The notes: a model not told the origin generated them from the letters alone. 64,000 nucleotides of DNA from Patescibacteria group bacterium (GCA_018897195.1 JAHILH010000003.1:431-64430), one strand, 5' to 3'. Counted from the stretch's first letter, positions 2,945 through 49,004 are shown. Numbers and translations: made by a program.

Positions 2945-3136
2945 TCATCGTCATTCCCGCGAAGGCGGGAATCCAGGCGCTACAAATAATGGATGTATAA
3001 TTATAGAAACTATCCCGAGTGCTCGGGATTAATAAAAATATTGATAATAAATAACACTTCGTAAATTTTAATTCTCCTTACATTGAAAACACTCTACGAG
3101 GTGCCTGGATCCCCGCCTTCGCGGGGATGACGAATG
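2945..3136. mobile_element. MITE-like element bounded by ~34-bp inverted repeats of the 'VIPAKAGIQ' palindromic repeat type
   Basis: Left arm tcatcgtcattcccgcgaaggcgggaatccaggc (2945-2978). Right arm gcctggatccccgccttcgcggggatgacgaatg (3103-3136) is its near reverse complement. Each arm is itself a hairpin. The internal palindrome atcccgagtgctcgggat lies at 3012-3029. The element fills the whole mgtA-xth gap. Confidence 0.6.
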
Positions 3137-3143
3137 TTGTAAT

Positions 3144-6958: not shown

Positions 6959-6999
6959 TTATTTGAACTTCTGTTTTTTAAATTAAGGATGGTATATAG

Positions 7000-7124
7000 T
7001 CTCCCTCGCCCAGGCGGGAGAGGGATGGGGTGAGGGGTTGTCGGAAGATGGTTCGTGGTGTTTATTTTTGTTTATTGCACAGAAGACTACCTCACCCTGA
7101 CCCTCTCCTGGCAAGGAGAGGGAA
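7000..7124. mobile_element. MITE-like element, copy 1 (two inverted ~38-bp 'tctccctcgcc..gggagaggg..ggggtgagggg' units flanking a shared core)
   Basis: Nearly the same sequence recurs at 44852-45007. The shared core is ggggtgaggggttgtcggaagatggtt[c/t]gtgg ... gcacagaa[g/a]actacctcaccct[g/a]accctctcctggcaaggagaggga. Confidence 0.65.
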
Positions 7125-7141
7125 CTGTATATTTCTCTTTG

Positions 7142-10470: not shown

Positions 10471-10481
10471 ACCTATATATC

Positions 10482-10518
10482 TCTCCCTCTTCTTTGCAGG
10501 AGGGGGTTGGGGTGAGGT
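10482..10518. repeat. Solo unit of the tctccct...ggggtgagg palindromic repeat family
   Basis: tctccctcttctttgcaggagggggttggggtgaggt, related to the units at 7000, 44852, 47482 and 48954. Confidence 0.55.
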
Positions 10519-10525
10519 AGAGAAT

Positions 10526-12113: not shown

Positions 12114-12122
12114 AAAATAGCC

Positions 12123-12165
12123 ATTGTTGTAAATTTAGTGCGACCGCACTTTTTTTACAACAATT
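12123..12165. repeat. 43-nt near-perfect palindrome, family 'ATTGTTGTAAA...TTTACAACAAT', copy 1
   Basis: attgttgtaaa ttt agtgcg ac cgcact tttt tttacaacaat. Ends 13 nt before the MFS start codon. Confidence 0.7.
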
Positions 12166-12178
12166 GATTTGATTAAAT

Positions 12179-13297: not shown

Positions 13298-13343
13298 AAT
13301 TGTTGTAAATTTACGTCGACCGTCGTAATTTTACAACAATTAA
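13298..13343. repeat. Palindrome family 'ATTGTTGTAAA...TTTACAACAAT', copy 2
   Basis: Same outer arms as copy 1. The inner stem is changed to ttacg..cgtaa but is still self-complementary. Ends 4 nt before the GH130 start codon. Confidence 0.7.
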
Positions 13344-13347
13344 TTCT

Positions 13348-14403: not shown

Positions 14404-14410
14404 AGAAATG

Positions 14411-14453
14411 AATTGTTGTAAAAAAAGTGCGGTCGCACATTATTTATAACAAT
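14411..14453. repeat. Palindrome family 'ATTGTTGTAAA...TTTA[T/C]AACAAT', copy 3
   Basis: attgttgtaaa aaa agtgcg gt cgcac atta tttataacaat, 37 nt upstream of the flavodoxin start. Confidence 0.65.
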
Positions 14454-14490
14454 ATCGTTCGTTGTATTTTTATTATTAAAATATAAATTT

Positions 14491-23266: not shown

Positions 23267-23345
23267 ATACAAAAAGAACTGTAATAAATAATCAAAGCCA
23301 CGCTTTGTTGAAAACACTTATTACAGTTTTTATTGTTTAAATAAT
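23267..23345 (+). repeat. ATACAAAAAG-hairpin-TTTTAT element (long-loop variant) upstream of fusA
   Basis: atacaaaaag + aactgtaataa ... ttattacagtt + tttattgtttaaataatt. Same flanks as the second hairpin of the intercistronic modules. Confidence 0.45.
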
Positions 23346-25468: not shown

Positions 25469-25978
25469 ATGCATAGTCAATTACAGAGAGCTATAAATAT
25501 TGCAAAAAAAACTGGCGATAAATTAATTGTCATTGATTCTCGTGAACCGGAAAATTCTTATGTTCTGATTCCTTTTGATGAATATGAACGTGATTTGGAA
25601 GCCAGTAATTGTAATTGCTGCGAAGATGAGGAATATTACAGTGAGGATGAAAATGCCGAAGAGGACGAAAAAATTGATTTCGACAATGATTATGAGGGTG
25701 AAAATGATTTTTATGCCCCGGTCGACAACCACTTGACAGAAGAGGAGCGAATTGATAAAATAAATCGCGACCTCTCAATTTCGAAAGAGGATAATTTGTC
25801 AAACGAAAGCGATTTTGATAAAATGAATTTTTTGGAAGGTAATTTTGACCGACGTGTGGATTTTTCCGAAGAGCATAGTGGTAAAAGTGGACATTGGAGT
25901 ATCCCAAAGAATATTAAAGAGGTAGCCGAGGAGGTGATTGAAGAAGATAGACACTATTTAGAGGAAATAACTTTTTAA
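25469..25978 (+). CDS. Hypothetical highly acidic protein inserted between fusA and tuf
   Basis: 169 aa. A ~40-aa N-terminal globular-looking segment, then Asp/Glu/Asn-rich low complexity including CNCCEDEEYY. Starts 23 nt after the fusA stop. Confidence 0.5.
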   Translation: MHSQLQRAINIAKKTGDKLIVIDSREPENSYVLIPFDEYERDLEASNCNCCEDEEYYSEDENAEEDEKIDFDNDYEGENDFYAPVDNHLTEEERIDKINRDLSISKEDNLSNESDFDKMNFLEGNFDRRVDFSEEHSGKSGHWSIPKNIKEVAEEVIEEDRHYLEEITF

Positions 25979-25990
25979 AATAAAAGTTTT

Positions 25991-26050
25991 GGTCATTGGA
26001 GCATAAGCTCCTGACTATATATAAAACTAAAAGTTTTAATAAATAATTAA
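25991..26050 (+). repeat. Two-hairpin intercistronic module, copy A
   Basis: ggtcattggagc-ataa-gctcctgact, then aaaact-aaa-agtttt, then aataaataatt. Confidence 0.6.
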
Positions 26051-26125
26051 CATAATAAAATTAATTTTAACGACTGGACAAAACTCTCTCAGTTTTAAAC
26101 TAAGTAGAGGTCGTAAGCTAAAAAA

Positions 26126-27313
26126 ATGGCAGAAAAATTCGAACGCAACAAGCCACATCTTAATGTGGGAACAATTGGTCACGTTGACCACGGTAAAACA
26201 ACATTAACAGCCGCTATCTTGAAGGTGGCAGCCGCTAATGGTTTGATGTCATCTCACAAGGATGTAGATCAAATTGACGCAGCGCCGGAAGAAAAAGCTC
26301 GTGGTATTACTATCGCGACAGCTCACGTTGAATATGAATCAACATTGAGACATTATGCTCACGTAGATTGTCCTGGTCACGCTGACTATGTAAAGAACAT
26401 GATTACTGGTGCCGCTCAAATGGACGGTGCAGTATTGGTAGTAGCCGCAACAGACGGACCTATGCCTCAAACAAGAGAGCACATCCTTTTGGCTAGACAA
26501 GTTGGTATCGGTCACATCGTAGTATTTTTGAACAAATGCGATATGGTTGAAGACCAAGAATTGATCGACCTTGTGGAAGAAGAAATCAGAGACTTGTTGA
26601 AGAAATATGAATTTGACGGTGATAATACAAGAATCATCAGAGGTTCAGCTTTGAAAGCTCTTGAAAATCCAACAGGTGAATACGGTTTGAAAGTAATGGA
26701 ATTGTTGACTGCTTTAGACGAAGCTATTCCAGAACCAGTTCGTGATACTGATAAAACATTCTTAATGCCTATTGAAGACGTCTTCTCAATCGAAGGTCGT
26801 GGTACAGTAGTTACAGGTAGAATTGAAAGAGGTATTTTGAAAGTTGGTGATGAATGTGAAATCGTTGGTTTGATGGATACAAAGAAAACAGTGGTAACTG
26901 GTATCGAAATGTTTAACAAGCAGTTAGACAGTGGTATGGCTGGTGACAATGCTGGTGTATTACTTCGTGGTACAAAGAAAAATGAAGTTGAGCGTGGACA
27001 AGTTTTGGCTAAAACTGGAACTGTAACACCTCACACTGAATTTGAAGCTGAAGTTTACATTTTGTCAAAAGAAGAAGGCGGTAGACACAAGCCATTCTTC
27101 AAGGGTTACAAGCCTCAATTCTATATCAGAACAACTGATGTTACTGGTGAAGTAGAATTGCCAGAAGGAACTGAAATGGTAATGCCTGGTGATACTATCA
27201 ACTTCAAGGTGAAACTTATTTCTCCAATTGCTTTGGAAGAAAAAATGAGATTCGCTATTCGTGAAGGTGGTAGAACAGTAGGTGCCGGTGTAGTAGTTAA
27301 AGTAATTAAGTAA
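26126..27313 (+). CDS. tuf: Elongation factor Tu
   Basis: 395 aa. [21 protein letters not shown]. Confidence 0.98.
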
Positions 27314-27321
27314 ATACTTTG

Positions 27322-27360
27322 TCCCGCCTCGGTCTCAAGTTGAGGCGGGATTGTATTATT
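27322..27360 (+). terminator. GC-rich hairpin after tuf (terminator or attenuator)
   Basis: tcccgcctc (27322-27330) pairs with gaggcggga (27342-27350). Followed by ttgtattattt, an interrupted T-run. Confidence 0.45.
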
Positions 27361-27397
27361 TATTTAAAAATAATTAACATTATTTAAAGATTTCAAG

Positions 27398-27751
27398 ATG
27401 ACAGCAGAAAAAAAATCCAAAAAAGAAACAGGCGAGAAAGATGATTCTAAACAAAAAATTAGAATCAAGATTAAGGCCTTTGATCATAAGATCATTGACC
27501 AGTCAACAAAGACAATTATTGACACCGTGAACAGAAGCGGTGCTAGCGTTTTTGGTCCTATTCCACTTCCAGTGGAAAAAAAGAGATACACTGTGAATCG
27601 ATCAACTTTCGTTCACAAGACAGCTAGAGATCAATATGAAATCAGAACTCACAAGAGACTGATTGATATTATTGACCCTACGCCAAAGACTATCGAGGAT
27701 TTGACAAGTCTAAGCTTACCAGCCGGTGTTGATATTGAAATAAAGATGTAA
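27398..27751 (+). CDS. rpsJ: 30S ribosomal protein S10 (with ~18-aa Lys-rich N-terminal extension)
   Basis: 117 aa. [16 protein letters not shown]...[12 protein letters not shown]. Confidence 0.95.
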
Positions 27752-27836
27752 TCCATTTTTGTTTAAATATTTGCCAAATTTTTATATTTATATTATATAT
27801 AATATAAAATGGCTAATATTGAATAATTAAAAGGAC

Positions 27837-27865
27837 TTGCATTTTTTAAAAAGATGGCATATAAT
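27837..27865 (+). promoter_or_regulatory. Strong sigma-70-type promoter inside the rpsJ-rplC gap
   Basis: TTGCAT (27837-27842), exactly 17 nt, TATAAT (27860-27865). AT-rich UP-like DNA lies upstream. Confidence 0.6.
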
Positions 27866-27871
27866 GTCATT

Positions 27872-28048
27872 ATATAAGTAGAGCTATCTTGTATTGTTTT
27901 AGTAACTCACTGCTAGCGCGGTGACAGTGCTTTAATGATGGATAAATAGCTAAACTAGAAAGGATTAAGTTAACAAAAAGATACAGTACAACTCAGAAGA
28001 TAATTCTATTATTTTTTAGTGCTGGTTTTGTTATAAACCAGTTTTTTG
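27872..28048 (+). ncRNA. Candidate ~175-nt structured RNA (independent sRNA, possibly 6S-like rod, or an attenuating leader of the rplC operon)
   Basis: Bounded by the promoter above and an intrinsic terminator (ctggttt-tgttat-aaaccag + tttttt, 28022-28047). Hand fold: 27880-27897 pairs with 27983-28007, 27898-27907 pairs with 27968-27979, and an apical hairpin is cactg/cagtg (27908-27929). No ORF. Confidence 0.5.
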
Positions 28049-28107
28049 TTTCTTAAATCCTTAAATTATCCGCTCCAAGCGGATCTGCGACAATAACAGA
28101 ATATTTT

Positions 28108-28923
28108 ATGAAATTTATTATAGGTAAAAAACAAGAAATGACTCAACTTTGGAAGAATGACAAAGTTGTTGCAGTAACCTTAGTTAAGGCTGAACCAAAC
28201 ATTGTAGTTCAAGTAAAAAATGAAGCTACTGATGGTTATTCAGCATTGCAAATGGGTTTTGGCGTTCGCAAAGAAAAGAATATCAAGAAACCACAATTAG
28301 GTCATATGAAGGGCTTGGGCAGTTTTGCTAAACTTCGTGAGTTCAGAACTGAAGGCGTAGAAGCTAAGAAGGGTGATGTGGTTGGCGTTGAAACATTTCA
28401 AGAAGGTGATATTATCCAAGTAACTGCTAACTCCAAAGGAAAAGGTTTTCAAGGTGTAGTAAAGAGACATGGTTTCAAAGGTCAGATTAAGACTCATGGT
28501 ACTAAGGATCAAGTTAGAATGCCTGGCTCGATTGGTGCTAAAGGCCCTGCTCATGTATTTAAAGGTACAAGAATGGGAGGTCGCATGGGTGGCAAGAGAA
28601 TTACAACTAGCAATTTGGAAATTATCAAAGTTGATATTGAAAATAATATTTTATACATCAAGGGTGCTGTACCAGGAGCAATTAACGGCTTGGTAATGAT
28701 TAAGGGCAAAGGTGAATTAAAATTTATTGAAGAGAAGACTGTTCCAGTTGAAGAAAAGGTTGAAGAAAAGGTTGAAGAAAAAGTTGAAGAGGTGGTTGAA
28801 GAGAAAGTGGTGGAAGTTAAGGAAGAGGTTAAGGCTGAAGAAGTAGTAAAAGCTGAAGAAAATATTGAACAAGTAGTAATTGAAGCTGGCAAAAAAATTG
28901 AAGACGAAGAAGCTTCAAAATAA
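28108..28923 (+). CDS. rplC: 50S ribosomal protein L3 with ~60-aa Glu/Lys/Val-rich C-terminal extension
   Basis: 271 aa. The core GKGFQGVVKRHGF..., then a (VEEK)n tail encoded by a 12-bp tandem repeat at about 28747-28800. Confidence 0.95.
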   Translation: MKFIIGKKQEMTQLWKNDKVVAVTLVKAEPNIVVQVKNEATDGYSALQMGFGVRKEKNIKKPQLGHMKGLGSFAKLREFRTEGVEAKKGDVVGVETFQEGDIIQVTANSKGKGFQGVVKRHGFKGQIKTHGTKDQVRMPGSIGAKGPAHVFKGTRMGGRMGGKRITTSNLEIIKVDIENNILYIKGAVPGAINGLVMIKGKGELKFIEEKTVPVEEKVEEKVEEKVEEVVEEKVVEVKEEVKAEEVVKAEENIEQVVIEAGKKIEDEEASK

Positions 28924-28951
28924 TTATTGATAACTAAGTTTTTTAAATAGT

Positions 28952-29611
28952 ATGTCCATTAAGACTAAATTATACAATCAAAAAGCAGAAACAGTTGGCG
29001 AGATTGAGTTGAGTGAAAATATCTTTGGTGTAAAAACCAATAATGATTTGATTCACCAAGCTTATGTTGCACAGTTAGGAAATGAAAGACAAGTTTTGGC
29101 ACATACCAAGACAAAAGGAGAAGTTCGCGGTGGTGGTAAAAAACCATGGCGACAAAAGGGAACTGGTCGTGCTCGTTCTGGTTCAAGTCGTTCACCGATT
29201 TGGATTGGCGGTGGTGTTACTTTTGGTCCCTTGAAAGATAGAAATTTCAAAAAAGAAATCAATAAGAAAATGAAGCAAAAAGCGATGTTCATGGTTTTGT
29301 CTGATAGAATGGCAAGCGAAGCAATGGCAATTTTGGATGAAGTGAAAATGAGCGAATTTAAGACTAAAACTTTTAATGAGATTGTTGGTAACATGGAAGA
29401 AAAGGCAATGAAGAAAATCGAGAATAAGAGAAGAAGTGTATTAATTATTGATTCTAGCAACGATGATAAGGTGAAATACTCTGGCCGCAATTTGGTCGGT
29501 GTGAAGATTATCAATTTGGACAACATCAATATTTTCGATTTATTAAAATATCGAAATTTGATTATTACCAAAGCATCGGTTGAGAAAATGGAAATAACTT
29601 ATAAGAAATAA
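28952..29611 (+). CDS. rplD: 50S ribosomal protein L4
   Basis: 219 aa. RGGGKKPWRQKGTGRAR motif. Confidence 0.95.
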   Translation: MSIKTKLYNQKAETVGEIELSENIFGVKTNNDLIHQAYVAQLGNERQVLAHTKTKGEVRGGGKKPWRQKGTGRARSGSSRSPIWIGGGVTFGPLKDRNFKKEINKKMKQKAMFMVLSDRMASEAMAILDEVKMSEFKTKTFNEIVGNMEEKAMKKIENKRRSVLIIDSSNDDKVKYSGRNLVGVKIINLDNINIFDLLKYRNLIITKASVEKMEITYKK

Positions 29612-29638
29612 ATTATCTGCGAAGGCAGGATTTAATAT

Positions 29639-29995
29639 ATGGCAACGAAAGATTTATACAAAGACGAAACAACTAAAGGTGAAACCAAGAAAGTAGCTGG
29701 CAATAAAGTGTCAAATGCTTATAAAGTTTTAGTTAAACCCTTAGTAACTGAAAAGGGTGCTAATTTTGCAACATCGAATAAGTATTTGTTCGAAGTGGCT
29801 CATGACACCAATAAGGTTGAAATCAAAAAAGCGATCAAGGACGTTTATGGTGTTACACCAACTGACGTTAACGTAATGAACGTTTTGGGTAAGACTAAAA
29901 GATTTGGTCGAATCAAAGGCAAGAGAAAGGATTGGAAAAAGGCGATTGTAACTTTACCAAAAGGCGAAACAATCAATGTTTACGAAGGAGTATAA
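29639..29995 (+). CDS. rplW: 50S ribosomal protein L23 (N-terminal extension)
   Basis: 118 aa. ...KPLVTEKG....NKYLFEV....NKVEIKKAI... Confidence 0.93.
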   Translation: MATKDLYKDETTKGETKKVAGNKVSNAYKVLVKPLVTEKGANFATSNKYLFEVAHDTNKVEIKKAIKDVYGVTPTDVNVMNVLGKTKRFGRIKGKRKDWKKAIVTLPKGETINVYEGV

Positions 29996-30017
29996 TTATA
30001 AATTTTCAATTTAAGAT

Positions 30018-30863
30018 ATGGGAATTAAAAAAGTAAAACCAACAACACCAGGAAGACGTCAAGCTACATTTGATGATTTTAGTGATATCACTAAAAGCAA
30101 GCCAGAAAAGAATTTGATTACAATCAAAAAGCAACATGGTGGTAGAAACGCACAAGGTAAGATTACAGTAAGACACAGAGGTGGTGGTGTAAAAAGATTT
30201 GTTAGAATCGTTGATTTTAAGAGAGAAAAATTTGGCATCGAGGCAACTGTAAATGCGATTGAATATGATCCAAATAGAGGTGCGAGAATTGCTTTGTTAT
30301 TTTATGCTGATGGTGAAAAGAGATATATTGTAGCTCCGGTTGGTCTAGTGGTTGGTGACAAGATTATGTCATCACAAGAGAGAATTGAAATCAAGAAAGG
30401 TAACGCGATGCCGATTGGAAATATTCCAGCTGGTGTAGCCGTATATAATGTGGAAATCGAACCAGGACGTGGCGGAAAAATCGCTCGTGGCGCTGGTATC
30501 GCATTATTCGTAATGGGTGTAGAAGGAAAATATGCGCAAGTAAAGATGCCATCCGGTGAAATAAGATTGATTAAGAGGGAATGTATGTGCACAGTTGGAC
30601 AAGTTAGTAATGTTGATCAAAGACATATTAAGATTGGTTCTGCTGGAAGAAATAGAAGATTAGGATGGAGACCAACAGTTCGTGGTACAGCGATGAATCC
30701 AGTTGATCATCCACATGGTGGTGGTGAAGGTAACCAATCTATTGGTTTGAAGCATCCGAAGACACCTTGGGGTAAACCAGCGTTGGGCGTGAAGACTAGA
30801 AACAAGAAAAAGCCATCTGGCAAATTGATTGTAAAAAGAAGAGTTAATAAGAAGAAGAAATAA
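30018..30863 (+). CDS. rplB: 50S ribosomal protein L2
   Basis: 281 aa. [31 protein letters not shown]. Confidence 0.97.
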
Positions 30864-30870
30864 TAAATTC

Positions 30871-30928
30871 GGTCATTGGAGCATAAACTCCTGACCATAC
30901 AAAAAGCCGAGGGCTTTTATAAATAATT
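30871..30928 (+). repeat. Two-hairpin intercistronic module, copy B
   Basis: ggtca-tt-ggag cataaa ctcc tgacc, then atacaaaaagcc-gag-ggcttttataaataatt. Confidence 0.65.
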
Positions 30929-30939
30929 ATTATAACCAA

Positions 30940-31215
30940 ATGTCTAGAAGTTTAAAAAAAGGACCATATATTAATCAACGGTTCTTGAACAAAATCAAGA
31001 ATTTGAAACCGGGCGAAAAAACTAATTTGCGTCTTTGGGATCGTTCATGTTCAATCACACCAGAAATGGTTGGTTTTACAGTAGGCGTCCACAATGGTCG
31101 TAAGCATGTTGATGTCTATGTAGTTGAAGATATGGTGGGTCACAAGTTTGGTGAATTTGCACCAACTAGAAAATTTGTTAATCACGGTGGTAAAATGGCC
31201 AAGGTTAAAAAATAA
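30940..31215 (+). CDS. rpsS: 30S ribosomal protein S19
   Basis: 91 aa. MSRSLKKGPY..., GHKFGEFAPTR. Confidence 0.97.
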   Translation: MSRSLKKGPYINQRFLNKIKNLKPGEKTNLRLWDRSCSITPEMVGFTVGVHNGRKHVDVYVVEDMVGHKFGEFAPTRKFVNHGGKMAKVKK

Positions 31216-31235
31216 TTTAAAAGATAAAAGATAAT

Positions 31236-31814
31236 ATGCAAGTATCAGCAAAATTAAACAATTTAAAAATATCTCCAAGAAAGGTCCGATTAGTAGTGGA
31301 CGTTATTCGTGGCATGAAGGTTGAAAAAGCCTTGGATCAGTTGAAGTTTATTAATAAGAAATCAACTCATCCAATTGACAAGCTTTTGAAATCAGCGATT
31401 GCTAACGCGGAAAACAATTTCGAATTGAAGGTGGATAATCTATTAGTGAAGGAAATCAGAGTTGACGAAGGTATGACTATGAAGCGATCAATGCCAAGAG
31501 CTAGAGGTCGTGCGACAGTTATCAGAAAAAGAGTTAGTCACGTGATGATCACTTTAGGAGAATTAGTTGATAGTGGTGAGAAGAAAGGCAAGCAGACTAA
31601 AATTGAAGCGCCGATCAAATTAACAGGAAACGTTAAAGAAGAAGGTGCTGCTAAGGTTAAGGCCAAGGAAGAAGAAAAAATTGCTAAGGAAGATGCGGAT
31701 GAGAAGGGTAAGAAAATTGTTGATCCAAGAATGGAAGGACATGGCAAGCATAGCAAAGTTGAGAAAGATTCTAAGGGTTTTGTTAATAAAATGTTTAGAA
31801 GAAAGTCAGGATAA
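31236..31814 (+). CDS. rplV: 50S ribosomal protein L22 with ~80-aa Lys/Glu-rich C-terminal extension
   Basis: 192 aa. The core ISPRKVRLVVDVIRG...RARGRA..I.KR.SH, then a KEEGAAKVKAKEEEKIAKEDADEKGKK tail. Confidence 0.93.
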   Translation: MQVSAKLNNLKISPRKVRLVVDVIRGMKVEKALDQLKFINKKSTHPIDKLLKSAIANAENNFELKVDNLLVKEIRVDEGMTMKRSMPRARGRATVIRKRVSHVMITLGELVDSGEKKGKQTKIEAPIKLTGNVKEEGAAKVKAKEEEKIAKEDADEKGKKIVDPRMEGHGKHSKVEKDSKGFVNKMFRRKSG

Positions 31815-31844
31815 GCGACTACTTGAAGTAGATTGATAGTTTAC

Positions 31845-31899
31845 GGTCATGGAGCATAAACTCCTGACCACACAAAAAACCTTTGGTTTTTATAATAAC
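31845..31899 (+). repeat. Two-hairpin intercistronic module, copy C
   Basis: ggtca-t-ggag cataaa ctcc tgacc, then acacaaaaaacc-ttt-ggtttttataataac. Confidence 0.65.
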
Positions 31900-31910
31900 T
31901 TATACATTAT

Positions 31911-32606
31911 ATGGGAAAAAAAGTTAATCCAAAAATTTTTAGAATGGGTATTACAAGAACTTGGCACTCTAAGTGGTTCGGGACTGGTAAAGACTATGTA
32001 AAAAATTTGCAACAAGATTTGTATATTCGTAGACATTTGTTGAAAAAATACATGGAAGCTGGTGTTGATCGCGTTGAGATTGAAAGAAATGCTAAGAAGA
32101 TTGTAATCAATGTTTATACAGCTAAGCCTGGTTTTATTATCGGTCGCGGCGGTGCTGGTATTGAGGATTTGAAAAAAGAGCTTTTGGTTAAGTTTTTATC
32201 AAGACCACAAGCAGTTAAATTGAGTGATATAAATTTAAATATACACGAAGTTGATCGACCAAGTTTGAGTTCTCAAATTGTGGTGCAAGGAATGGCCTTG
32301 GAAATTGAAAAGAGAATGCCTTTCCGAAGAGTAATGAAGCAAGTGATTAACAAAGTAGAAAGAGCTGGGGGATTAGGAATCAAAGTAAAAATTTCAGGAC
32401 GATTGAATGGATCAGAAATTGCTAGAACGGAAATGTTGACTAGTGGTAAAGTACCCCTACACACTTTAAGAGCAGACATTGATTATTCCCGTGGCGTAGC
32501 CCGCACAACATATGGTGCAATCGGTATCAAGGTTTGGATTTATAAGGGTGATAAATTTGAAAAAGTAGGAGATTCTAGCGGCGAAGTCGTTGGCAAGAAA
32601 AAATAA
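31911..32606 (+). CDS. rpsC: 30S ribosomal protein S3
   Basis: 231 aa. MGKKVNPKIFR.G....W.S.WF, KH domain GRGGAGIE. Confidence 0.97.
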   Translation: MGKKVNPKIFRMGITRTWHSKWFGTGKDYVKNLQQDLYIRRHLLKKYMEAGVDRVEIERNAKKIVINVYTAKPGFIIGRGGAGIEDLKKELLVKFLSRPQAVKLSDINLNIHEVDRPSLSSQIVVQGMALEIEKRMPFRRVMKQVINKVERAGGLGIKVKISGRLNGSEIARTEMLTSGKVPLHTLRADIDYSRGVARTTYGAIGIKVWIYKGDKFEKVGDSSGEVVGKKK

Positions 32607-32617
32607 ATAATTTATAC

Positions 32618-32672
32618 GGTCGTGGAATGTGAATTCCCGACCATACAAAAAGACTAAATCTTTTATAACAAT
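32618..32672 (+). repeat. Two-hairpin intercistronic module, copy D (compensatory variant)
   Basis: ggtcg-t-ggaat gtga attcc cgacc, then atacaaaaaga-ctaaa-tcttttataacaatt. Both stem halves differ from copies B and C in a base-pair-preserving way. Confidence 0.65.
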
Positions 32673-32690
32673 TAGTGATATTATACATAT

Positions 32691-33095
32691 ATGTTAATGC
32701 CAAAGAAAACTAAATATAGAAAGTCGCACAAAGGCAAGAGAGGCGGAAAAGCTAGTAGAATGATTAGCGTTGCTTTCGGTAAATTTGGTTTGAAGACAAT
32801 GGAACCATTTTGGATCACTTCCAGACAAATCGAAGCGGCTCGTAGAGTAATCACGAGAGCGACAAAAAGAGGTGGTAAGATATGGATTAGAATTTTCCCT
32901 GATAAGCCAGTTACCCAAAAAGGTGGAGAAATCCCTATGGGTATGGGTAAAGGTTCAGTTGATCACTATGTAGCTGTTGTGAAACCAGGAATGGTTATGT
33001 TTGAAATCGACGGTGTTGACGAAGAGACAGCTAAAAGTGCTTTGATCGCGGCAGCCCACAAGCTACCAGTTAAATGTAAAGTAGTAAGTAGATAA
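32691..33095 (+). CDS. rplP: 50S ribosomal protein L16
   Basis: 134 aa. [14 protein letters not shown]...G. Confidence 0.97.
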
Positions 33096-33100
33096 ATTTT

Positions 33101-33301
33101 ATGAATTTAAAAGAATTAAAATTAAAAAACATTCCAGAATTGCACAAGATGTTGGCGGAACAGAGAGATAATTTGCGTGATTTGAGATTTAAGGATGCGA
33201 GCAAGCAATTAAAAAAAGTAACGGATATTAGAGTTGTGCGAACAACTATTTCCCGAATTTTGACTTTGCTTAACACCAAGAAAGAAGAAAATATTAAATA
33301 A
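33101..33301 (+). CDS. rpmC: 50S ribosomal protein L29
   Basis: 66 aa. Position between L16 and S17. LR.....L...L..LR. Confidence 0.9.
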   Translation: MNLKELKLKNIPELHKMLAEQRDNLRDLRFKDASKQLKKVTDIRVVRTTISRILTLLNTKKEENIK

Positions 33302-33326
33302 TATTTACATTAGTTAAATAATTAGT

Positions 33327-33632
33327 ATGGTTAATACAAAAGAAGTAAAATCGAATAAGAAAGTTGCAACTAAGGTTGATGAGGCAGTAGTCGTAGAAAG
33401 AGTAGTTATTAAAAAAACTTTTAATGGCGAGGTTGTGAGCGACAAAATGAACAAGACTGTTGTAGTTAAGGTTGATAGTGTTAAGATTCACCCACGATAT
33501 AAGAAGAGATATACAGTAAGCAAGAAATACAAGGTTCATGATGAAAAGGAACAGTATAAAACAGGTGATAAAGTAAAATTTATTGAATGTCGGCCAATGT
33601 CCAAGGACAAGAGATGGCGAGTAATTTATTAA
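33327..33632 (+). CDS. rpsQ: 30S ribosomal protein S17 (N-terminal extension)
   Basis: 101 aa. G.VVSDKM.KTVVV.V......HP.YKK......KY.VHDE. Confidence 0.93.
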   Translation: MVNTKEVKSNKKVATKVDEAVVVERVVIKKTFNGEVVSDKMNKTVVVKVDSVKIHPRYKKRYTVSKKYKVHDEKEQYKTGDKVKFIECRPMSKDKRWRVIY

Positions 33633-33649
33633 TCTAATTTTTTAGAGAT

Positions 33650-34021
33650 ATGATTCAAACAGAGTCAAGATTAAAAGTAGCAGATAATTCGGGTGCAAAG
33701 GAAGTTTTGTGTATCCATGTTTTTGGTGGTTACAAAAAAAGATACGGTGGGGTTGGTGATATTATTTCTTGTGCGGTAAAAGTGGCAGCGCCACATGCAG
33801 CGATCAAGAAAGGTGATGTAGTTCACGCTGTTATTGTTCGAACCAAAAAAGAAATCCGTCGTGAAGATGGTGTGTATTTGAGATTTAGCGAAAACGCTTG
33901 TGTGGTTATTGATAAGGTAAAGAAAGAGCCAAAAGCAACTCGCGTATTTGGTCCGATTGCTAGAGAGGTTAGAAAGAGAGGCTTTTTGAAGATTGCCTCA
34001 TTAGCACCAGAAGTTTTGTAA
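33650..34021 (+). CDS. rplN: 50S ribosomal protein L14
   Basis: 123 aa. [18 protein letters not shown]. Confidence 0.97.
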
Positions 34022-34047
34022 ATTACGATATATAATAAGAATATAAT

Positions 34048-34362
34048 ATGAAAATTAAAGTTAATGACAAAGTTAAAATAACAGCTGGTAAGGATAACGG
34101 TAAAACCGGAAAAGTTTTGCAAGTTTTTCCTGAGAAGAACAGAGCCAGTGTTGAAGGTATCAATTTATTGATCAAGCATATGCGTCCAAGAAGACAAGGT
34201 GAGCATGGTCAAAGAATTGAATTTCCAGCACCTATGGATTTGTCTAATTTAATGTTGTCTTGCCCTAAGTGTGGCAAAGAAGCGAGAATCGGTTATAAAT
34301 ATTCAGATGATAAAAAGAAGAAATATAGAGTTTGTAAAAAATGTGATCAAGTAATTGATTAA
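34048..34362 (+). CDS. rplX: 50S ribosomal protein L24 with CxxC...CxxC (Zn-ribbon-like) C-terminal part
   Basis: 104 aa. KVKITAGKDNGKTGKV KOW motif. C-terminus CPKCGKEARIGYKYSDDKKKKYRVCKKCDQ. Confidence 0.93.
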   Translation: MKIKVNDKVKITAGKDNGKTGKVLQVFPEKNRASVEGINLLIKHMRPRRQGEHGQRIEFPAPMDLSNLMLSCPKCGKEARIGYKYSDDKKKKYRVCKKCDQVID

Positions 34363-34376
34363 TTAGAATAATAATT

Positions 34377-34919
34377 ATGTTACAAGAAAAATATAAAAAT
34401 GAAATAATGCCGAAATTGAAGGAAGAATTTGGTTATACGAGCGCGATGCAGATTCCAAAGATTTCTAAGATTGTTGTTAATGTTGGATTTGGTAGACAGA
34501 CTAAGGAAAAAGCTTTTATCCAAAACGTTTTGAGCGGTTTAACAAGAATTACTGGACAAAAACCACAAGAGAACAAAGCGAAGAAGGCGATTTCTGCTTT
34601 CAAGCTTAGAGAAGGAATGGTAATTGGCGCCAGTGTTACCTTGAGAGGTAAGAGAATGACTGATTTTTTGACAAAATTAATTAATCTTTCTTTCCCAGGT
34701 GTAAGAGATTTCCGTGGCATTACTGATAAAGGCATGGACCGAACTGGTAACATGACAATCGGTTTCAAAGAACATTTAGCTTTCCCAGAAATTCGTAGTG
34801 ATGAAATTGAAAATGTTTTCGGCCTTGAGGTAAGTTTAGCAACAACTGCTAAGACTAGAAAAGAAGGTTTGAGACTGTTTGAATTATACGGTTTTCCATT
34901 TAAGAAAGATAATAAATAA
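34377..34919 (+). CDS. rplE: 50S ribosomal protein L5
   Basis: 180 aa. Position and the ...RDF.G......D..GN...G..E...FPE pattern. Confidence 0.95.
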   Translation: MLQEKYKNEIMPKLKEEFGYTSAMQIPKISKIVVNVGFGRQTKEKAFIQNVLSGLTRITGQKPQENKAKKAISAFKLREGMVIGASVTLRGKRMTDFLTKLINLSFPGVRDFRGITDKGMDRTGNMTIGFKEHLAFPEIRSDEIENVFGLEVSLATTAKTRKEGLRLFELYGFPFKKDNK

Positions 34920-34954
34920 TTTTTAATAAATAATAAATTAACGGCTAAGATTAT

Positions 34955-35140
34955 ATGGCTAGAAAAGCATTAATTGCAAAAGCAAAAAGAACACCAAAAT
35001 TTTCAACACGCGTTATTCGCCGATGTTGGAGATGTGGCAGAAACCATGGTTACATGCGTGATTTTAGTTTGTGTCGTATTTGTTTTCGTGAATTAGCTGA
35101 CAATGGTGATCTTCCGGGAATAAAGAAAGCATCTTGGTAG
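34955..35140 (+). CDS. rpsN: 30S ribosomal protein S14, type Z (Zn-ribbon, 61 aa)
   Basis: [16 protein letters not shown]...RC..CGR..G....F.LCR.CFRE. Confidence 0.95.
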
Positions 35141-35213
35141 AGTGTTTGTCCGCGTTAAGCGGAAATAATAATAAATAATAAGTATATATAGAAAATAAAT
35201 TAATATAAATTTT

Positions 35214-35624
35214 ATGACAGATCCAATAGCTGACATGTTAACAAGAATAAGAAATGCTTCCGCTGTGAAAAAAGCAGAGATTCTTTTACCGATGAGCAAA
35301 ATGAAGCATAAGATTGCCTTGATTCTTAAAGAAGAAGGGTGGGTTTATGATGTTGATGTTGTTAAAGCTAGCGCCGACCCGAAGAAATCTACTTTTGATG
35401 AATTAAAAATAGTATTGAAATACAAGAAGAGCGGTAAATCAGCGATTACTAGCATTAAGAGAATTAGTAAGCCAGGCTTACGCGCTTATTCCAAGAAGAT
35501 TGAACTACCTAGAGTTTTAAATAATTTGGGTATCGCCATTGTTTCAACATCTAAAGGCTTAATGACAAATAAAAAAGCTAGAAGAGAAGGTTTAGGTGGA
35601 GAAGTTATTTGTGAAATTTACTAA
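35214..35624 (+). CDS. rpsH: 30S ribosomal protein S8
   Basis: 136 aa. [15 protein letters not shown]. Confidence 0.97.
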
Positions 35625-35639
35625 GTAAAATAATACATT

Positions 35640-36185
35640 ATGTCACGTTTAGGAAAATTACCAATAAAATTTAATAATAATACTCAAGTACGCGTTGAAA
35701 AGGGATTCGTGATTGTTAAAGGTGCGAAAGGTGAGTTGAAGCAAAAGTTACATCCGTTAATTACAGTAACAGTTGGCGAAAGTGAATTACATGTAAGTAT
35801 TAAGGAAGGTGTTTCAAGAAAAGACAATGCCCTTTGGGGATTATTTTGGAGTTTGTTGAACAATATGGTGAAGGGCGTGACAGATGGTTTTAGCAAGAAA
35901 TTGGAATTGAAAGGTGTTGGTTATAAAATTGCAATTGCAGGACAGAAAGTAACTTTGAACGTTGGTTTTTCTCATCCAGTTGAATTTATTTTACCGACAG
36001 GTATTGCTGGAAAAGTAGAAGCGAACACAATCACAATTGAAGGTATTGATAAGCAATTAGTGGGTGAAATTTCCGCACAAATCAGAAAAATTAAGAAGCC
36101 AGAACCTTATAAAGGTAAGGGCATTAAGTATTCTGATGAGGTGATTGTGAGAAAGGAAGGTAAGACTTCAGCAAAGGGTAAATAA
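35640..36185 (+). CDS. rplF: 50S ribosomal protein L6
   Basis: 181 aa. MSRLGK.PI......V, PEPYKGKGIKY. Confidence 0.96.
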   Translation: MSRLGKLPIKFNNNTQVRVEKGFVIVKGAKGELKQKLHPLITVTVGESELHVSIKEGVSRKDNALWGLFWSLLNNMVKGVTDGFSKKLELKGVGYKIAIAGQKVTLNVGFSHPVEFILPTGIAGKVEANTITIEGIDKQLVGEISAQIRKIKKPEPYKGKGIKYSDEVIVRKEGKTSAKGK

Positions 36186-36215
36186 ATAGTTAAATAGAAA
36201 ACAAATTATAAATAT

Positions 36216-36587
36216 ATGAATATTAATAAAGCTAAAATTGAAAAGAGACTTAAGAGACGCATTAAGATCAGAAAGAAGATTTCTGGCACTGCGACTTGTC
36301 CAAGATTGAGCGTTTTTCGTTCAAATGCGAGCATGTTTGTGCAGATTATTGATGACGTAGCTGGTAAAACTTTAGTAAGCGGTGCTGCCAAGGAAGTTAA
36401 AGGTAAGAAGAGTGAGAGCGCTTTGACGGGCAAAATCTTGACTGGTTTTGAATTAGGCAAGTTAATTGCTGAAAAAGCAAAAGCGAAGAAAGTTGAACAA
36501 GTAGTTTTCGATCGTGGCGGTTATAAATATCACGGTAGAATCAAATCTTTGGCTGAAGGAGCAAGAGAGGGTGGTTTACAATTTTAA
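36216..36587 (+). CDS. rplR: 50S ribosomal protein L18
   Basis: 123 aa. PRLSVFRSN....[29 protein letters not shown]. Confidence 0.96.
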
Positions 36588-36620
36588 AATTAATACATAG
36601 AACTAATTTAGATAAAAATT

Positions 36621-37355
36621 ATGTCAAACGATAAAGTAGAAAATAAAATCGAAGCAAAGATTGATACTGATAAGAAGGCAGCTGATGTGGTTGCTAAGTC
36701 TGTTTTTGGTGATAAGAAAAAAAATCAATTTTCTAAAAAAAGAAGACCGGATAGTCGTGGTGAAAGACCGAAAGAAGAATTCGAACAAAGAATTGTTGAT
36801 TTGGCGAGAGTAACTCGTGTAATGGCTGGAGGAAAGAGAATGCGTTTCCGAGCTTGCGTGGCAATCGGTGATAAAAATGGTCGCATTGGAATCGGTTTAG
36901 ATAAGGGCGCTGATGTAACTATTGCGATTTCTAAAGCAGTTAATCAAGCAAAAAAAGTAATGATTGAAGTGCCGATTGTTAATGATACAATTCCTCATGA
37001 TGTTTATATGAAAACTGGGGCTGCGAAAATTCTATTGAAACCAGCTAAGCAAGGTAAGGGTATTATTGCTGGAGGAGCGGCTCGTATCATTTTTGATCTT
37101 GCCGGTATCAAAAATATTTCTAGTAAAATTTTGGGAACAACTAACAAGGTTAGTATTGCTAGAAACGTTATTGAAGCTTTAAGCAGTTTGCGAAAAGTTG
37201 ACAAGAAGGTAGTGGTAAAGAAAGAGGAGGGCGTTAGTGTTGAAAAAGCAGAAGCAGAAGTAAAAGTAGAAAAGAAAGAAGCTGTTAAGGCTGAAAAACC
37301 AGCCACTAAAAAAGTAGCAGCTAAAACTAAAGAAAAGAAAGAAATCAAAAAATAA
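36621..37355 (+). CDS. rpsE: 30S ribosomal protein S5 with N- and C-terminal Lys/Glu-rich extensions
   Basis: 244 aa. The core V.RV.RV..GG.R.RF.A.V..GD..G..G.G..KA.. plus a ~45-aa N-terminal and a ~55-aa C-terminal extension (VKVEKKEAVKAEKPATKK...). Confidence 0.93.
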   Translation: MSNDKVENKIEAKIDTDKKAADVVAKSVFGDKKKNQFSKKRRPDSRGERPKEEFEQRIVDLARVTRVMAGGKRMRFRACVAIGDKNGRIGIGLDKGADVTIAISKAVNQAKKVMIEVPIVNDTIPHDVYMKTGAAKILLKPAKQGKGIIAGGAARIIFDLAGIKNISSKILGTTNKVSIARNVIEALSSLRKVDKKVVVKKEEGVSVEKAEAEVKVEKKEAVKAEKPATKKVAAKTKEKKEIKK

Positions 37356-37385
37356 TAACATCCGCCGCGGCGGTTTAGCAAATTT

Positions 37386-37823
37386 ATGACATTATCATTA
37401 AATACAATTAAATCAAATAAGAGCTTGAAGCAACCTAAGAAGAGAATTGGTCGTGGTAATGGTTCTGGTATCGGCACTTACTCTGGTAAGGGCTTGAAGG
37501 GTCAAAAGGCGCGTGCCGGTGTGAGTGGTTTAAAGAGATTGGGTATGCGACAAATCTTGTTGAGAGTTCCAAAATCAAGAGGTTTTAAATCTTTGAGTGG
37601 GAAAGATCAAGTGCTTAATTTGGACGACTTGAATGTTTTTAAGGATAAGGACATTGTTAATAACAAAGTCTTGAAAGAAAAGGGCTTGATTTCGAAAGAG
37701 GCAATCACTGTAAAGATACTAGGCGACGGTGAGTTGACTGTAAAGGGTTTGACCTTTGAGAATATCAAGATATCAGAAAGTGCTAAAGAAAAAATCACCA
37801 AGTTAGACGGAACAATTTTATAA
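37386..37823 (+). CDS. rplO: 50S ribosomal protein L15
   Basis: 145 aa. K.RIGRG.GSG.G..SG.G.KGQK.R.G. It follows rpsE after only 30 nt, so there is no room for rpmD. Confidence 0.95.
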   Translation: MTLSLNTIKSNKSLKQPKKRIGRGNGSGIGTYSGKGLKGQKARAGVSGLKRLGMRQILLRVPKSRGFKSLSGKDQVLNLDDLNVFKDKDIVNNKVLKEKGLISKEAITVKILGDGELTVKGLTFENIKISESAKEKITKLDGTIL

Positions 37824-37824
37824 A

Positions 37825-37856
37825 TAAAAAAATGTAGCACTGCTACATTTTTTTAT
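37825..37856 (+). terminator. Intrinsic terminator between rplO and secY
   Basis: aaaaaaatgtagca-c-tgctacattttttt. Confidence 0.7.
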
Positions 37857-37917
37857 AGTTGAGAAGCATGAACTTTCAACTATACAAAAAGCCGATTGCT
37901 TTTATATATAAATAATT
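37857..37917 (+). repeat. Two-hairpin intercistronic module, copy E (fully re-coded first stem)
   Basis: agttgagaag-catga-actttcaact (10 bp including one G-U), then atacaaaaagc-cgatt-gcttttatatataaataatt. Confidence 0.6.
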
Positions 37918-39195: not shown

Positions 39196-39215
39196 GAAAA
39201 TTAGCTTAGCTACAC

Positions 39216-39247
39216 AAAAAACCTGTCCAACGTGGACAGGTTTTTTA
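39216..39247 (+). terminator. Intrinsic terminator after secY
   Basis: acacaaaaaa + cctgtcca-acg-tggacagg + tttttt. Confidence 0.8.
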
Positions 39248-39283
39248 TATTATCAAAATATGTTATAATAAAAAAATAAATAT

Positions 39284-42804: not shown

Positions 42805-43010
42805 ATATAAAGCCGTTATTATTTTGGCCAACACCAAAAAAGGCGCAGAAAGAAATTTGTCATTTTGGCAAGGAGTAGAATCTGCCGGATAAGCCCCGTT
42901 ATCGCTGTCTAAAAGTGTCCCGATTGTTTGGGAAATGAGGGTGGTACCGCGGGTGAAGACTCGTCCCTGGATGTCATTTTTTTTGATGTTCAGAGACGAG
43001 TCTTTTTTTA
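42805..43010 (+). promoter_or_regulatory. T-box riboswitch leader upstream of aspS
   Basis: Canonical T-box sequence aatgagggtggtaccgcg (42934-42951), preceded by a Stem-III-like hairpin tccc-gattgttt-ggga. Terminator aagactcgtc (42956-42965) / gacgagtctt (42995-43004) + ttttt competes with the antiterminator. Confidence 0.8.
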
Positions 43011-44825: not shown

Positions 44826-44851
44826 TTCTATATAAAAAAGAGGGGTAATGG

Positions 44852-45007
44852 TCTCCCTCGCCCCGCGGGAGAGGGTTAGCGCAATCCTCGTCCGACAAAT
44901 AATAAGGGGACGGGGTGAGGGGTTGTCGGAAGATGGTTTGTGGATAATATTTTGTTTAGTGCACAGAAAACTACCTCACCCTAACCCTCTCCTGGCAAGG
45001 AGAGGGA
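44852..45007. mobile_element. MITE-like element, copy 2 (same family as 7000-7124, with an extra ~36-bp internal hairpin)
   Basis: Shares the terminal units and the core ggggtgaggggttgtcggaagatggtttgtgg...gcacagaaaactacctcaccctaaccctctcctggcaaggagaggga with copy 1. Fills the aspS-leuS gap. Confidence 0.65.
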
Positions 45008-45038
45008 ATAAAACGATTTAATTTTAATTTTAAAACAT

Positions 45039-47474: not shown

Positions 47475-47481
47475 TTTATAT

Positions 47482-47519
47482 TCTCCCTCGCCCCGGCGGG
47501 AGAGGGTCGGGGTGAGGGG
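47482..47519. repeat. Solo unit of the palindromic repeat family
   Basis: tctccctcgccccggcgggagagggtcggggtgagggg. Confidence 0.6.
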
Positions 47520-47531
47520 TAAATTTGAAAA

Positions 47532-48407: not shown

Positions 48408-48460
48408 ATATTTATTTTAGCACATTTTCTATTTTTTTATAAATTTGGTATAATGTTGAT

Positions 48461-48949: not shown

Positions 48950-48953
48950 TTTT

Positions 48954-48991
48954 CCCCTCACCCCAACCCTCTCCCGCCAGGGCGAGGGAGA
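48954..48991. repeat. Solo unit of the palindromic repeat family (inverted orientation)
   Basis: cccctcaccccaaccctctcccgccagggcgagggaga, approximately the reverse complement of the 47482 unit. Confidence 0.6.
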
Positions 48992-49004
48992 TTGAAAAGT
49001 AACT

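Follow-up and report, generated by a model that had tools for sequence, protein, structure and literature searches.

bcr1, a repeat found only in the B. cereus group, is ∼155 bp long, occurs in 11-130 copies and has two stem-loops kept by compensatory changes, TTTAT borders, 5-bp direct repeats at its flanks and no transposase of its own (PMC3184786; PMC6542083). The PATEs of the IS200/IS605 kind have neither terminal inverted repeats (TIRs) nor a target duplication; they carry a hairpin, bound by TnpA, near each end, insert 3′ of a short conserved T-rich target (a fixed tetra- or pentanucleotide) with an orientation bias and are usually longer than the element described below, e.g. 271 nt (PMC7290912). 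REP sequences combine an unpaired GT(A/G)G or CGTC tag with a GC-rich palindrome of 20-40 nt, and are found in more than 100 copies and in inverted doublets, or BIMEs (PMC2817692; PMC3733652), and SPRITE is a terminator-like structured intergenic repeat (table in PMC3184786). Here we report a small structured, non-autonomous dispersed repeat, new and without an Rfam family, from a 64,000-nt stretch of DNA of a Patescibacteria group bacterium (GCA_018897195.1 JAHILH010000003.1:431-64430), referred to throughout as the window. Five copies of one 48-49 nt unit, all on the + strand, lie in spacers between its translation-factor and ribosomal protein (r-protein) genes, and we consider, with moderate confidence, that the unit (48-51 nt across the family) is a small DNA repeat, non-autonomous and either mobile or copy-pasted, that belongs to Candidatus Falkowbacteria (Patescibacteria).

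The unit runs from GGUCA to CUUUU(U)A and has a G+C content of 26-39%. It begins with hairpin 1, a bulged 9-bp stem with a conserved CAURAA loop, and continues with an AYACAAAAAR linker (AUACAAAAAG), a 6-7 bp A/U-clamped mini-hairpin (hairpin 2) and UUUUA. An initial annotation of the stretch had described a two-hairpin module at the same five positions, and both these and the sequences it quoted for copies B, C, D and E were correct; the trailing UUUUAUA..AAUAAUU that it counted as part of the module is generic, since every gene of the window has an AT-rich upstream region, and the trailing UUUUAUAAAUAAUU is likewise typical of upstream regions of this genome rather than specific to the module. 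Listed with their scores under a covariance model, R1, which was built from ten copies and run with filters off, the copies in the window are as follows.

25991..26038, + strand: copy A, between an acidic open reading frame (ORF; 25469-25978) and the tuf leader, 69.0 bits; hairpin 1 at 25991-26016, hairpin 2 at 26022-26038, variant linker AUAUAUAAAAC.
30871..30919, + strand: copy B, in the rplB-rpsS spacer, 77.9 bits; hairpin 1 at 30871-30896, linker ATACAAAAAG at 30897-30906, hairpin 2 at 30902-30918.
31845..31892, + strand: copy C, in the rplV-rpsC spacer, 80.1 bits; hairpin 1 at 31845-31869, hairpin 2 at 31875-31891.
32618..32665, + strand: copy D, in the rpsC-rplP spacer, 75.0 bits, the sole window copy shared with a congener; hairpin 1 at 32618-32642, hairpin 2 at 32648-32664.
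37857..37904, + strand: copy E, between the rplO terminator and secY, 74.8 bits; hairpin 1 at 37857-37881 (AGUUG.GAAG / CUUU.CAACU, the most diverged stem), hairpin 2 at 37887-37903.

In the window R1 returned these five copies at 69-80 bits (E ∼1e-12 to 1e-14) and its next match at 24.7 bits; scanned over related loci as well, the model recovered extra copies. The pattern ACAAAAAR..YTTTTWT has four matches in the window, every one on the + strand, against 0.20 expected, and the exact hairpin-1 sequence has 0 matches expected by chance. Each copy-bearing spacer, unusually long at 76-103 nt, folds into both predicted hairpins with z-scores of -2.8 to -5.8. A search with Rfam 15 gave no gathering-score match in the window and none overlapping any copy at E<=10. 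Literature searches on intergenic repeats of Patescibacteria turned up nothing relevant.

Both hairpins have been maintained through compensatory changes. Over ten copies 94.4% of cells are paired and nine of the 16 pairs have changed on both sides; none of 500 shuffles reached the observed pairing, slid controls were 31-57% paired, and the outcome was the same on 11 distinct copies. Copy E alone carries three double compensatory changes in hairpin 1, with its CAUGAA loop retained. The retention of pairing despite sequence change, first proposed from the window copies, was therefore upheld, also after seven copies from relatives and metagenomes were added. The double changes are symmetric, which makes a plain palindromic operator bound by a dimeric protein less likely. 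Folding energies of the sense and antisense strands showed no asymmetry for the unit, and were likewise symmetric for 213 hairpin spacers of relatives (p=0.59), so that hairpins mattering as RNA and hairpins mattering as single-stranded DNA are not told apart by this measure. The hairpin 1 loop (AURAA) is complementary to the 3′ UUUAU and might form a pseudoknot with it, but this pairing, read from the sequence, overlaps hairpin 2 and shows no covariation, and is not favoured.

The occurrence of the unit among relatives was followed through the orthologous operons of L084 and L085 (S3 92% in each), of L094 and L095 (77%) and of 80 GTDB species (L001-L080). L084, with ∼87% nucleotide identity to the window, has only copy D, at rpsC-rplP; it is without copies B and C (rplB-rpsS spacer of 43 nt, rplV-rpsC spacer of 30 nt), the site of copy A is taken by a different 95-nt hairpin element and that of copy E by an unrelated hairpin element of ∼190 nt. 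L085 is without B, C and D, its spacers there measuring 24, 45 and 26 nt respectively, and its empty site for copy C reads AGTTTAT/TAAATTATAC. The unit was not found in the r-protein loci of L094, L095 and the 80 GTDB species. Hairpin 1 of copies A, B and C shows only 1-2 differences in 26 positions, and this near-identity, given that L084 has none of the three, points to one subfamily that was duplicated recently in the lineage of the window. Copies A, B and C arose in that lineage after its split from the closest congener, while copy D, which is closer to copies of other genomes than to A, B or C, is older. The same strain was present in three independent samples, 100% identical over 5-16 kb with no polymorphism between them, and the species is also represented by a fragmentary NCBI metagenome-assembled genome (MAG), GCA_018895855.1.

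A strict IUPAC pattern for hairpin 1 matched only five loci in JGI metagenomes, one of them the L084 orthologue of copy D and the other four (L086, L087, L089 and L090) on contigs of 48-52% G+C that are also without Shine-Dalgarno sequences. The same pattern had 0 matches in viral contigs, and a phage origin was rejected on that ground. By its MraZ homologues the L087 organism is another member of the Falkowbacteria; among the loci carrying such homologues, R1 found the copy at mraZ again in L097 and L098, which represent a second lineage of 52% GC, and one more copy in L097, and L100-L104 (MraZ 81-98%) are without the unit. The copies outside the window are listed here.

L084, 10703-10763: orthologue of copy D, 77.9 bits.
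L086: copy 16 nt upstream of a phosphomannomutase-type gene (pgm).
L087, L097 and L098: copies 3 nt upstream of mraZ; only 3 nt separate the end of hairpin 2 from the mraZ ATG in L087.
L089: copy upstream of a coiled-coil/rlmH/typA cluster, in an apparently divergent intergenic region.
L090: copy after a terminator.
L097, 3958-4018: second copy, between radical-SAM and glycosyltransferase genes and antisense to both.

Counted over independent sites, nine out of ten copies are in the sense orientation and one is antisense. The distance from unit to next start codon is 3-33 nt, or 75 nt for copy A, which stands ahead of the tuf leader, and the insertion spots are often directly after a stop codon or the T-run of a terminator, in AT-rich spacers.

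Two filled/empty pairs show the limits of the unit directly. L097 and L099 are 87% identical over 18.8 kb, and L099 has neither of the two L097 copies, the borders being clean. At the mraZ site L097 reads acggtttat(GGTCATGG...GTCTTTTA)tatgttt, with the inserted DNA in parentheses, vs acggtttatgttt in L099, a 51-nt indel with TAT at both junctions that reflects either a 3-bp duplication or chance. The second copy accounts for exactly 50 extra nt, cagtcagga(50 nt)aaaattctg, vs cagtcaggaaaaattctg in L099; the site lies within an A5 run (cagtcagga^aaaattctg), and the insertion has no target duplication and no TIR. Comparison of the left end of the unit, GGTCAYGGAG, with the reverse complement of its right end, TAAAAGNC, likewise revealed no shared inverted repeat. 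The left flank is TTTWY at all ten sites, with an invariant T at -3 and the 50% GC genomes included, and TTTAT stands on both sides at only three of them (E, L086, L087). For the mraZ gene of L097 (10001-10483, protein P0121), the in-frame insertion before the gene supplies upstream ATGs, with the result that MraZ is called at 160 aa vs 143 aa; the longer protein is an annotation artefact caused by the repeat, or possibly a real N-terminal extension. Care must be taken in annotating such loci, as an insertion has here extended a gene call, and compensatory changes can mimic a regulatory RNA.

We favour a mobile or copied DNA element on account of its presence and absence at orthologous sites, the precise filled/empty pairs, the unrelated gene contexts and the one antisense copy, the near-identity of hairpin 1 in copies A, B and C, the TTTWY left flank and the covariation in both hairpins, and the same genomes are rich in other hairpin-repeat families within spacers. 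The initial annotation had argued for selection on RNA structure rather than simple repeat spread; the pairing that it pointed to is kept, and the precise 50-51 nt indels, the patchy sites and the antisense copy speak in part for repeat spread. A simple REP- or MITE-like repeat would be expected in either orientation, and the one antisense copy and the two filled/empty pairs go some way towards this, yet the bias is 9:1. Hairpin shape would be kept because it is needed, either for propagation, where the obvious candidate is an enzyme like those of IS200/IS605 or RAYT, which recognises hairpins in single-stranded DNA, or for a role of the transcribed RNA. Within the r-protein operons the unit would be co-transcribed, adding two stem-loops between cistrons, and its likely effect would be a mild punctuation of the mRNA, as an exonuclease barrier or as a structural insulator of the AU-rich initiation region, and not efficient termination, promoter activity or r-protein feedback. 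Effects on mRNA processing or as a stabiliser are possible, and copy D at least seems to be under purifying selection in place.

Several observations weigh against a mobile origin or complicate it. Copy D and its flanks are identical at 80 of 84 positions between the window and L084 (95%), vs 64% at codon position 3 in rpsC and 75% in rplP, and in a sliding window the copy D spacer forms a local identity peak of 0.92-1.0; conservation above that of silent sites means that copy D is not neutral junk, and some copies may have gained a role at the RNA level. Copy number looks low, with five copies in 64 kb and only five JGI loci by the strict pattern. The copies do not cluster by genome, and their sequence is ∼90% conserved between organisms of 38% and 52% GC, a degree of conservation that would also suit a functional motif. 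The orientation bias is strong (9:1) and the position consistently close to the 5′ end of a gene, and the two hairpins are dissimilar, unlike typical IS200/IS605 ends. Pfam scans of ∼40 of the ∼62 window ORFs revealed no transposase, those of the Y1 HUH kind included, and no RAYT. The gene tables of the unit-carrying loci likewise contain no transposase, and neither those Pfam scans nor the JGI pattern matches turned up TnpA, TnpB or an autonomous parent with these ends.

The best surviving alternative, which we regard as possible but distinctly less probable, is a dedicated cis-acting RNA cassette whose hairpins and single-stranded AUACAAAAAG platform are read by a clade-specific RNA-binding protein, an RNase or the 30S subunit. 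Such a cassette would govern how the RNA of the downstream cistron is processed, how stable it is or how it is translated where Shine-Dalgarno sequences are absent, and its spread would be secondary. As an RNA the unit may be a stabiliser, a processing site, or an insulator or standby platform for initiation of this kind. Conservation of the loop and linker sequences across genomes of 38-52% GC, covariation in both hairpins and the local conservation peak at copy D all agree with it, as does the placement of nine of the ten sites in the sense direction 3-33 nt before a start codon (75 nt for copy A). In L086 (TTAACA-16-TGtTATAAT) and L090 (TTGACA-17-TAAAAT) strong promoters lie 5′ of the unit, which is therefore inside the 5′ untranslated region (UTR) there. 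Yet the unit is patchy, being missing at the orthologous junctions of 87%-identical congeners and at 80 related r-protein loci, the downstream genes have no common function, a single copy lies antisense, the strands show no G-U asymmetry, and no partner factor is known.

It is unlikely, in our view, that the unit works in one of three further ways taken together: as a portable RNA punctuation or 5′-UTR cassette for a Patescibacteria-specific factor, by hairpin-dependent mobilisation without TIR, duplication or visible transposase, or by translational coupling through spacer hairpins. In the first case, copies placed before growth-related genes (tuf, rpsS, rpsC, rplP, secY, mraZ and pgm) would fix the mRNA stability of individual cistrons, or an initiation that does not depend on Shine-Dalgarno sequences. 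The last has a setting in the relatives. In 28 Falkowbacteria/Parcubacteria loci (L001-L028), 215 of 450 r-protein spacers measure at least 40 nt, vs only 147 of 784 in more distant Patescibacteria and other loci, and of 213 long spacers subjected to folding, 41% give hairpins with z < -3. Typically such a hairpin leaves ∼3 nt free behind the stop codon and ∼9 nt ahead of the start, without strand asymmetry; the arms are often short tandem units, and the palindrome CCTGCCGGCAGG is found at several tips. Genomes differ in the junctions that are filled and in the family that fills them. Stop-to-start hairpins of this kind may, if the idea is true, bring stop and start codons together in space, so that translation could be coupled with no need of Shine-Dalgarno sequences.

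The initial annotation suggested that transcription within the S10/spc operon is partly terminated and re-initiated in a programmed way, with hairpin 2 and its U-run acting as an attenuating intrinsic terminator, and this now seems improbable. Hairpin 2 does have the A-tract, stem and T-tract order of the real terminators after rplO and secY, and the units stand in unusually long spacers (76-103 nt). Its core is only 2-3 bp, however, the A-U pairs use up the U-run and the tail, AUAAAU, is not rich in U; with only 2-3 pairs other than A/U it would make a poor terminator, and an efficient one was rejected on stem length and tail composition. The unit also abuts the mraZ start codon in L087, falls within 5′ UTRs in L086 and L090, and is not kept at these junctions in relatives. 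A terminator scan flagged no copy in the window, but it missed the real secY terminator too, and it did flag hairpin 2 of L090. Three hairpins of the window resemble parts of the unit and are given here for comparison.

23267..23334, + strand: unit in the rpsG-fusA spacer, composed of ATACAAAAAG, a long hairpin and TTTTATT; hairpin 2-like, a non-member not reported by R1.
37826..37854, + strand: terminator-like hairpin after rplO (A7-stem-T7), not part of the repeat; copy E lies directly 3′ of its T-run.
39212..39249, + strand: intrinsic terminator after secY, with ACACAAAAAA, an 8-bp GC-rich stem and T6; 14.5 bits, E ∼1, a non-member.

The fusA and secY units, which had been annotated as related to the module, do contain AYACAAAAAR, a hairpin and a T-run, but R1 did not report the first and gave the second only 14.5 bits; they are ordinary A-tract/T-tract hairpins outside the family. 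The rpsG-fusA spacer is 94% identical in L084. The rplO hairpin is conserved in L084 (16171-16205) and in the rplO-secY spacer of L094, with compensatory changes (TGTAGC/GCTACA vs GACGTAGC/GCTACGTC). No secY promoter is visible in the window 3′ of the rplO hairpin.

We think it still less probable that the unit is a portable sigma-70 promoter cassette, with a -35 element CATACA, a 16-18 nt spacer that forms hairpin 2 and a -10 element TATAAW, which restarts transcription within operons and behind terminators. Copies E, L086 and L090 each have a terminator-like hairpin on one side and the next gene on the other, the L089 copy is in an apparently divergent intergenic region, and most copies have a TATAAx hexamer 3′ of hairpin 2. 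The -35 element nevertheless matches at only three of six positions, the -10 does not keep its T at position 6, and a promoter scan flagged no copy; promoters of the clade are of the form TTGCAT/TTGACA-N17-TATAAT and in L086 and L090 are found upstream of the unit, and in L087 the putative -10 overlaps the mraZ ATG.

That the unit encodes a leader peptide or short upstream ORF (..V-x-E-H-E-F/L-P-T-I-Q-K..) is scarcely credible: one frame is open over hairpin 1 and the linker in eight of the first ten copies, seven of which have an ATG, GTG or TTG near the 5′ end, but a 1-nt insertion in A and B shifts this frame into an immediate stop, copy E is without a start codon, the frame closes at 11 codons at one extreme and reads through into other frames at the other, the likeness of the peptides is a trivial consequence of nucleotide conservation, and the compensatory stem changes alter the amino acids. 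An r-protein operator or autoregulatory leader was rejected, as the orthologous junctions are empty in L084 (except D), L085, L094 and L001-L080 and the unit is also found at mraZ, pgm and elsewhere; empty junctions, unrelated genes and the weak hairpin 2 also speak against the broader proposal that the module is an operator, terminator or re-initiation device specific to translation-factor and r-protein operons.

The window has a G+C content of 33-43% and a positive GC skew throughout. Between 22.3 and 39.2 kb it carries rpsL-rpsG-fusA, the acidic ORF, tuf-rpsJ, rplC through rplO and secY, with gene identities taken from Pfam for ten proteins and from the gene tables of identical contigs. A search with S3 against 185,579 species genomes returned Candidatus Falkowbacteria and Parcubacteria MAGs, at 74% identity for the best. 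No Shine-Dalgarno sequence stands upstream of any gene in the window, and the upstream regions are AT-rich, e.g. AAATAATTA. Several genes have a -10 of the TGnTATAAT type only 6-14 nt from the ATG (48433-48460, 39255-39283), a short distance that suggests leaderless or very short-leader mRNAs. Pfam has no match for the acidic ORF upstream of copy A (169 aa); related loci have an ORF of comparable size at this position (172 aa in L084, 149 aa in L094). The conserved tuf leader downstream of copy A (26068-26125; also in L001, L002, L005, L008, L016, L084 and L094) has a 5′ ACGRCUGG that pairs with GGGGYCGUA before the start codon; its covariation (ACGAC/GUCGU vs ACGGC/GCCGU), with a variable insert between the arms, is suggestive, in an alignment that is poorly framed. 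There is no rpmD (L30) between rpsE and rplO (36621-37823), an absence typical of the candidate phyla radiation, and L3 (271 aa), L22 (192 aa) and S5 (244 aa) are unusually long.

Two further leaders were observed in the window. The rpsJ-rplC spacer (27752-28107, 356 nt) contains a promoter, TTGCAT-N17-TATAAT, at 27837-27865 that is conserved in eight further related loci, and then a leader of ∼240 nt whose 5′ stem-loop domain (GTAACTC...AGTG) covaries; its terminator hairpin, GCTGG..CCAG with a T-run behind it, is conserved. This spacer measures 159-492 nt in all Falkowbacteria-like loci, so that rpsJ is split from rplC, and Rfam gave only a weak L20_leader match to the leader (E=1.6); from its sequence it is a candidate for a new r-protein leader or attenuator. 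A divergent T-box leader at 42807-42971, upstream of aspS (43041) and including GGGUGGUACCGCG, scored 51 bits (E=1.9e-10), below the Rfam gathering score of 93, and was hence missed by the default scan.

Other hairpin repeats also occur in the window. A second family (AATTGTTGTAAA..TTTACAACAATT) fills three spacers in a row within a single + strand operon (12114-12178, 13298-13347 and 14404-14490), the same pattern of local clustering as in the unit studied here. A G+C-rich palindromic family (CTCCCTCGCCCC..GGGAGAGGG..GGGGTGAGGGG) lies at 6959-7141, 10471-10525, 44826-45038, 47475-47531 and 48950-49004, and is also present in relatives (L084 8161-8267; the rpsJ-rplC spacer of L016). A near-perfect 199-nt hairpin (TCGTCATTCCCGCGAAGGCGGGAATCCAGGC..) is found at 2945-3143, and a similar element occupies the copy E site in L084 (16171-16407).

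The repeat is a very small and clean example of a structured non-autonomous element in the Patescibacteria, whose mobile DNA and expression signals are barely described. The compact S10/spc operons of these reduced genomes tolerate hairpin insertions and exchange them rapidly, and the conservation of copy D hints at co-option, which would offer an entry point to mRNA punctuation and to translation without Shine-Dalgarno sequences.

We compared the unit with bcr1, ERIC/IRU, BOX and SPRITE by their described features. The last three resemble it as transcribed intergenic repeats whose presence varies between related species, but they measure 100-130 bp or are modular, and belong to Proteobacteria and Firmicutes. 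[quoted passage not shown] With REP and BIME sequences the unit shares an extragenic position between co-directional genes, the ability to form hairpins, transcription within operons and a possible role as mRNA stabiliser; in contrast to them it starts with a paired GGUC and has no GT(A/G)G or CGTC head, is AT-rich, has two different hairpins and forms no doublets, the window holding five single copies in the same orientation. The likeness to PATEs is closer, comprising the lack of TIRs, no duplication at the clean site, a hairpin at each end, a TTTWY left target and an orientation bias, although the hairpins of the unit are unrelated in sequence and hairpin 1 starts at the first base and is not subterminal. 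bcr1 in turn is matched in being dispersed and intergenic, with two independent covarying stem-loops, variable positions among close relatives and a TTTAT-type border; the unit differs in its length (48-51 nt, bcr1 being three times longer), in its host, the Patescibacteria, in its low-looking copy number and in one insertion without duplication. On these descriptions the unit, while not a member of bcr1, is closest to it in behaviour.

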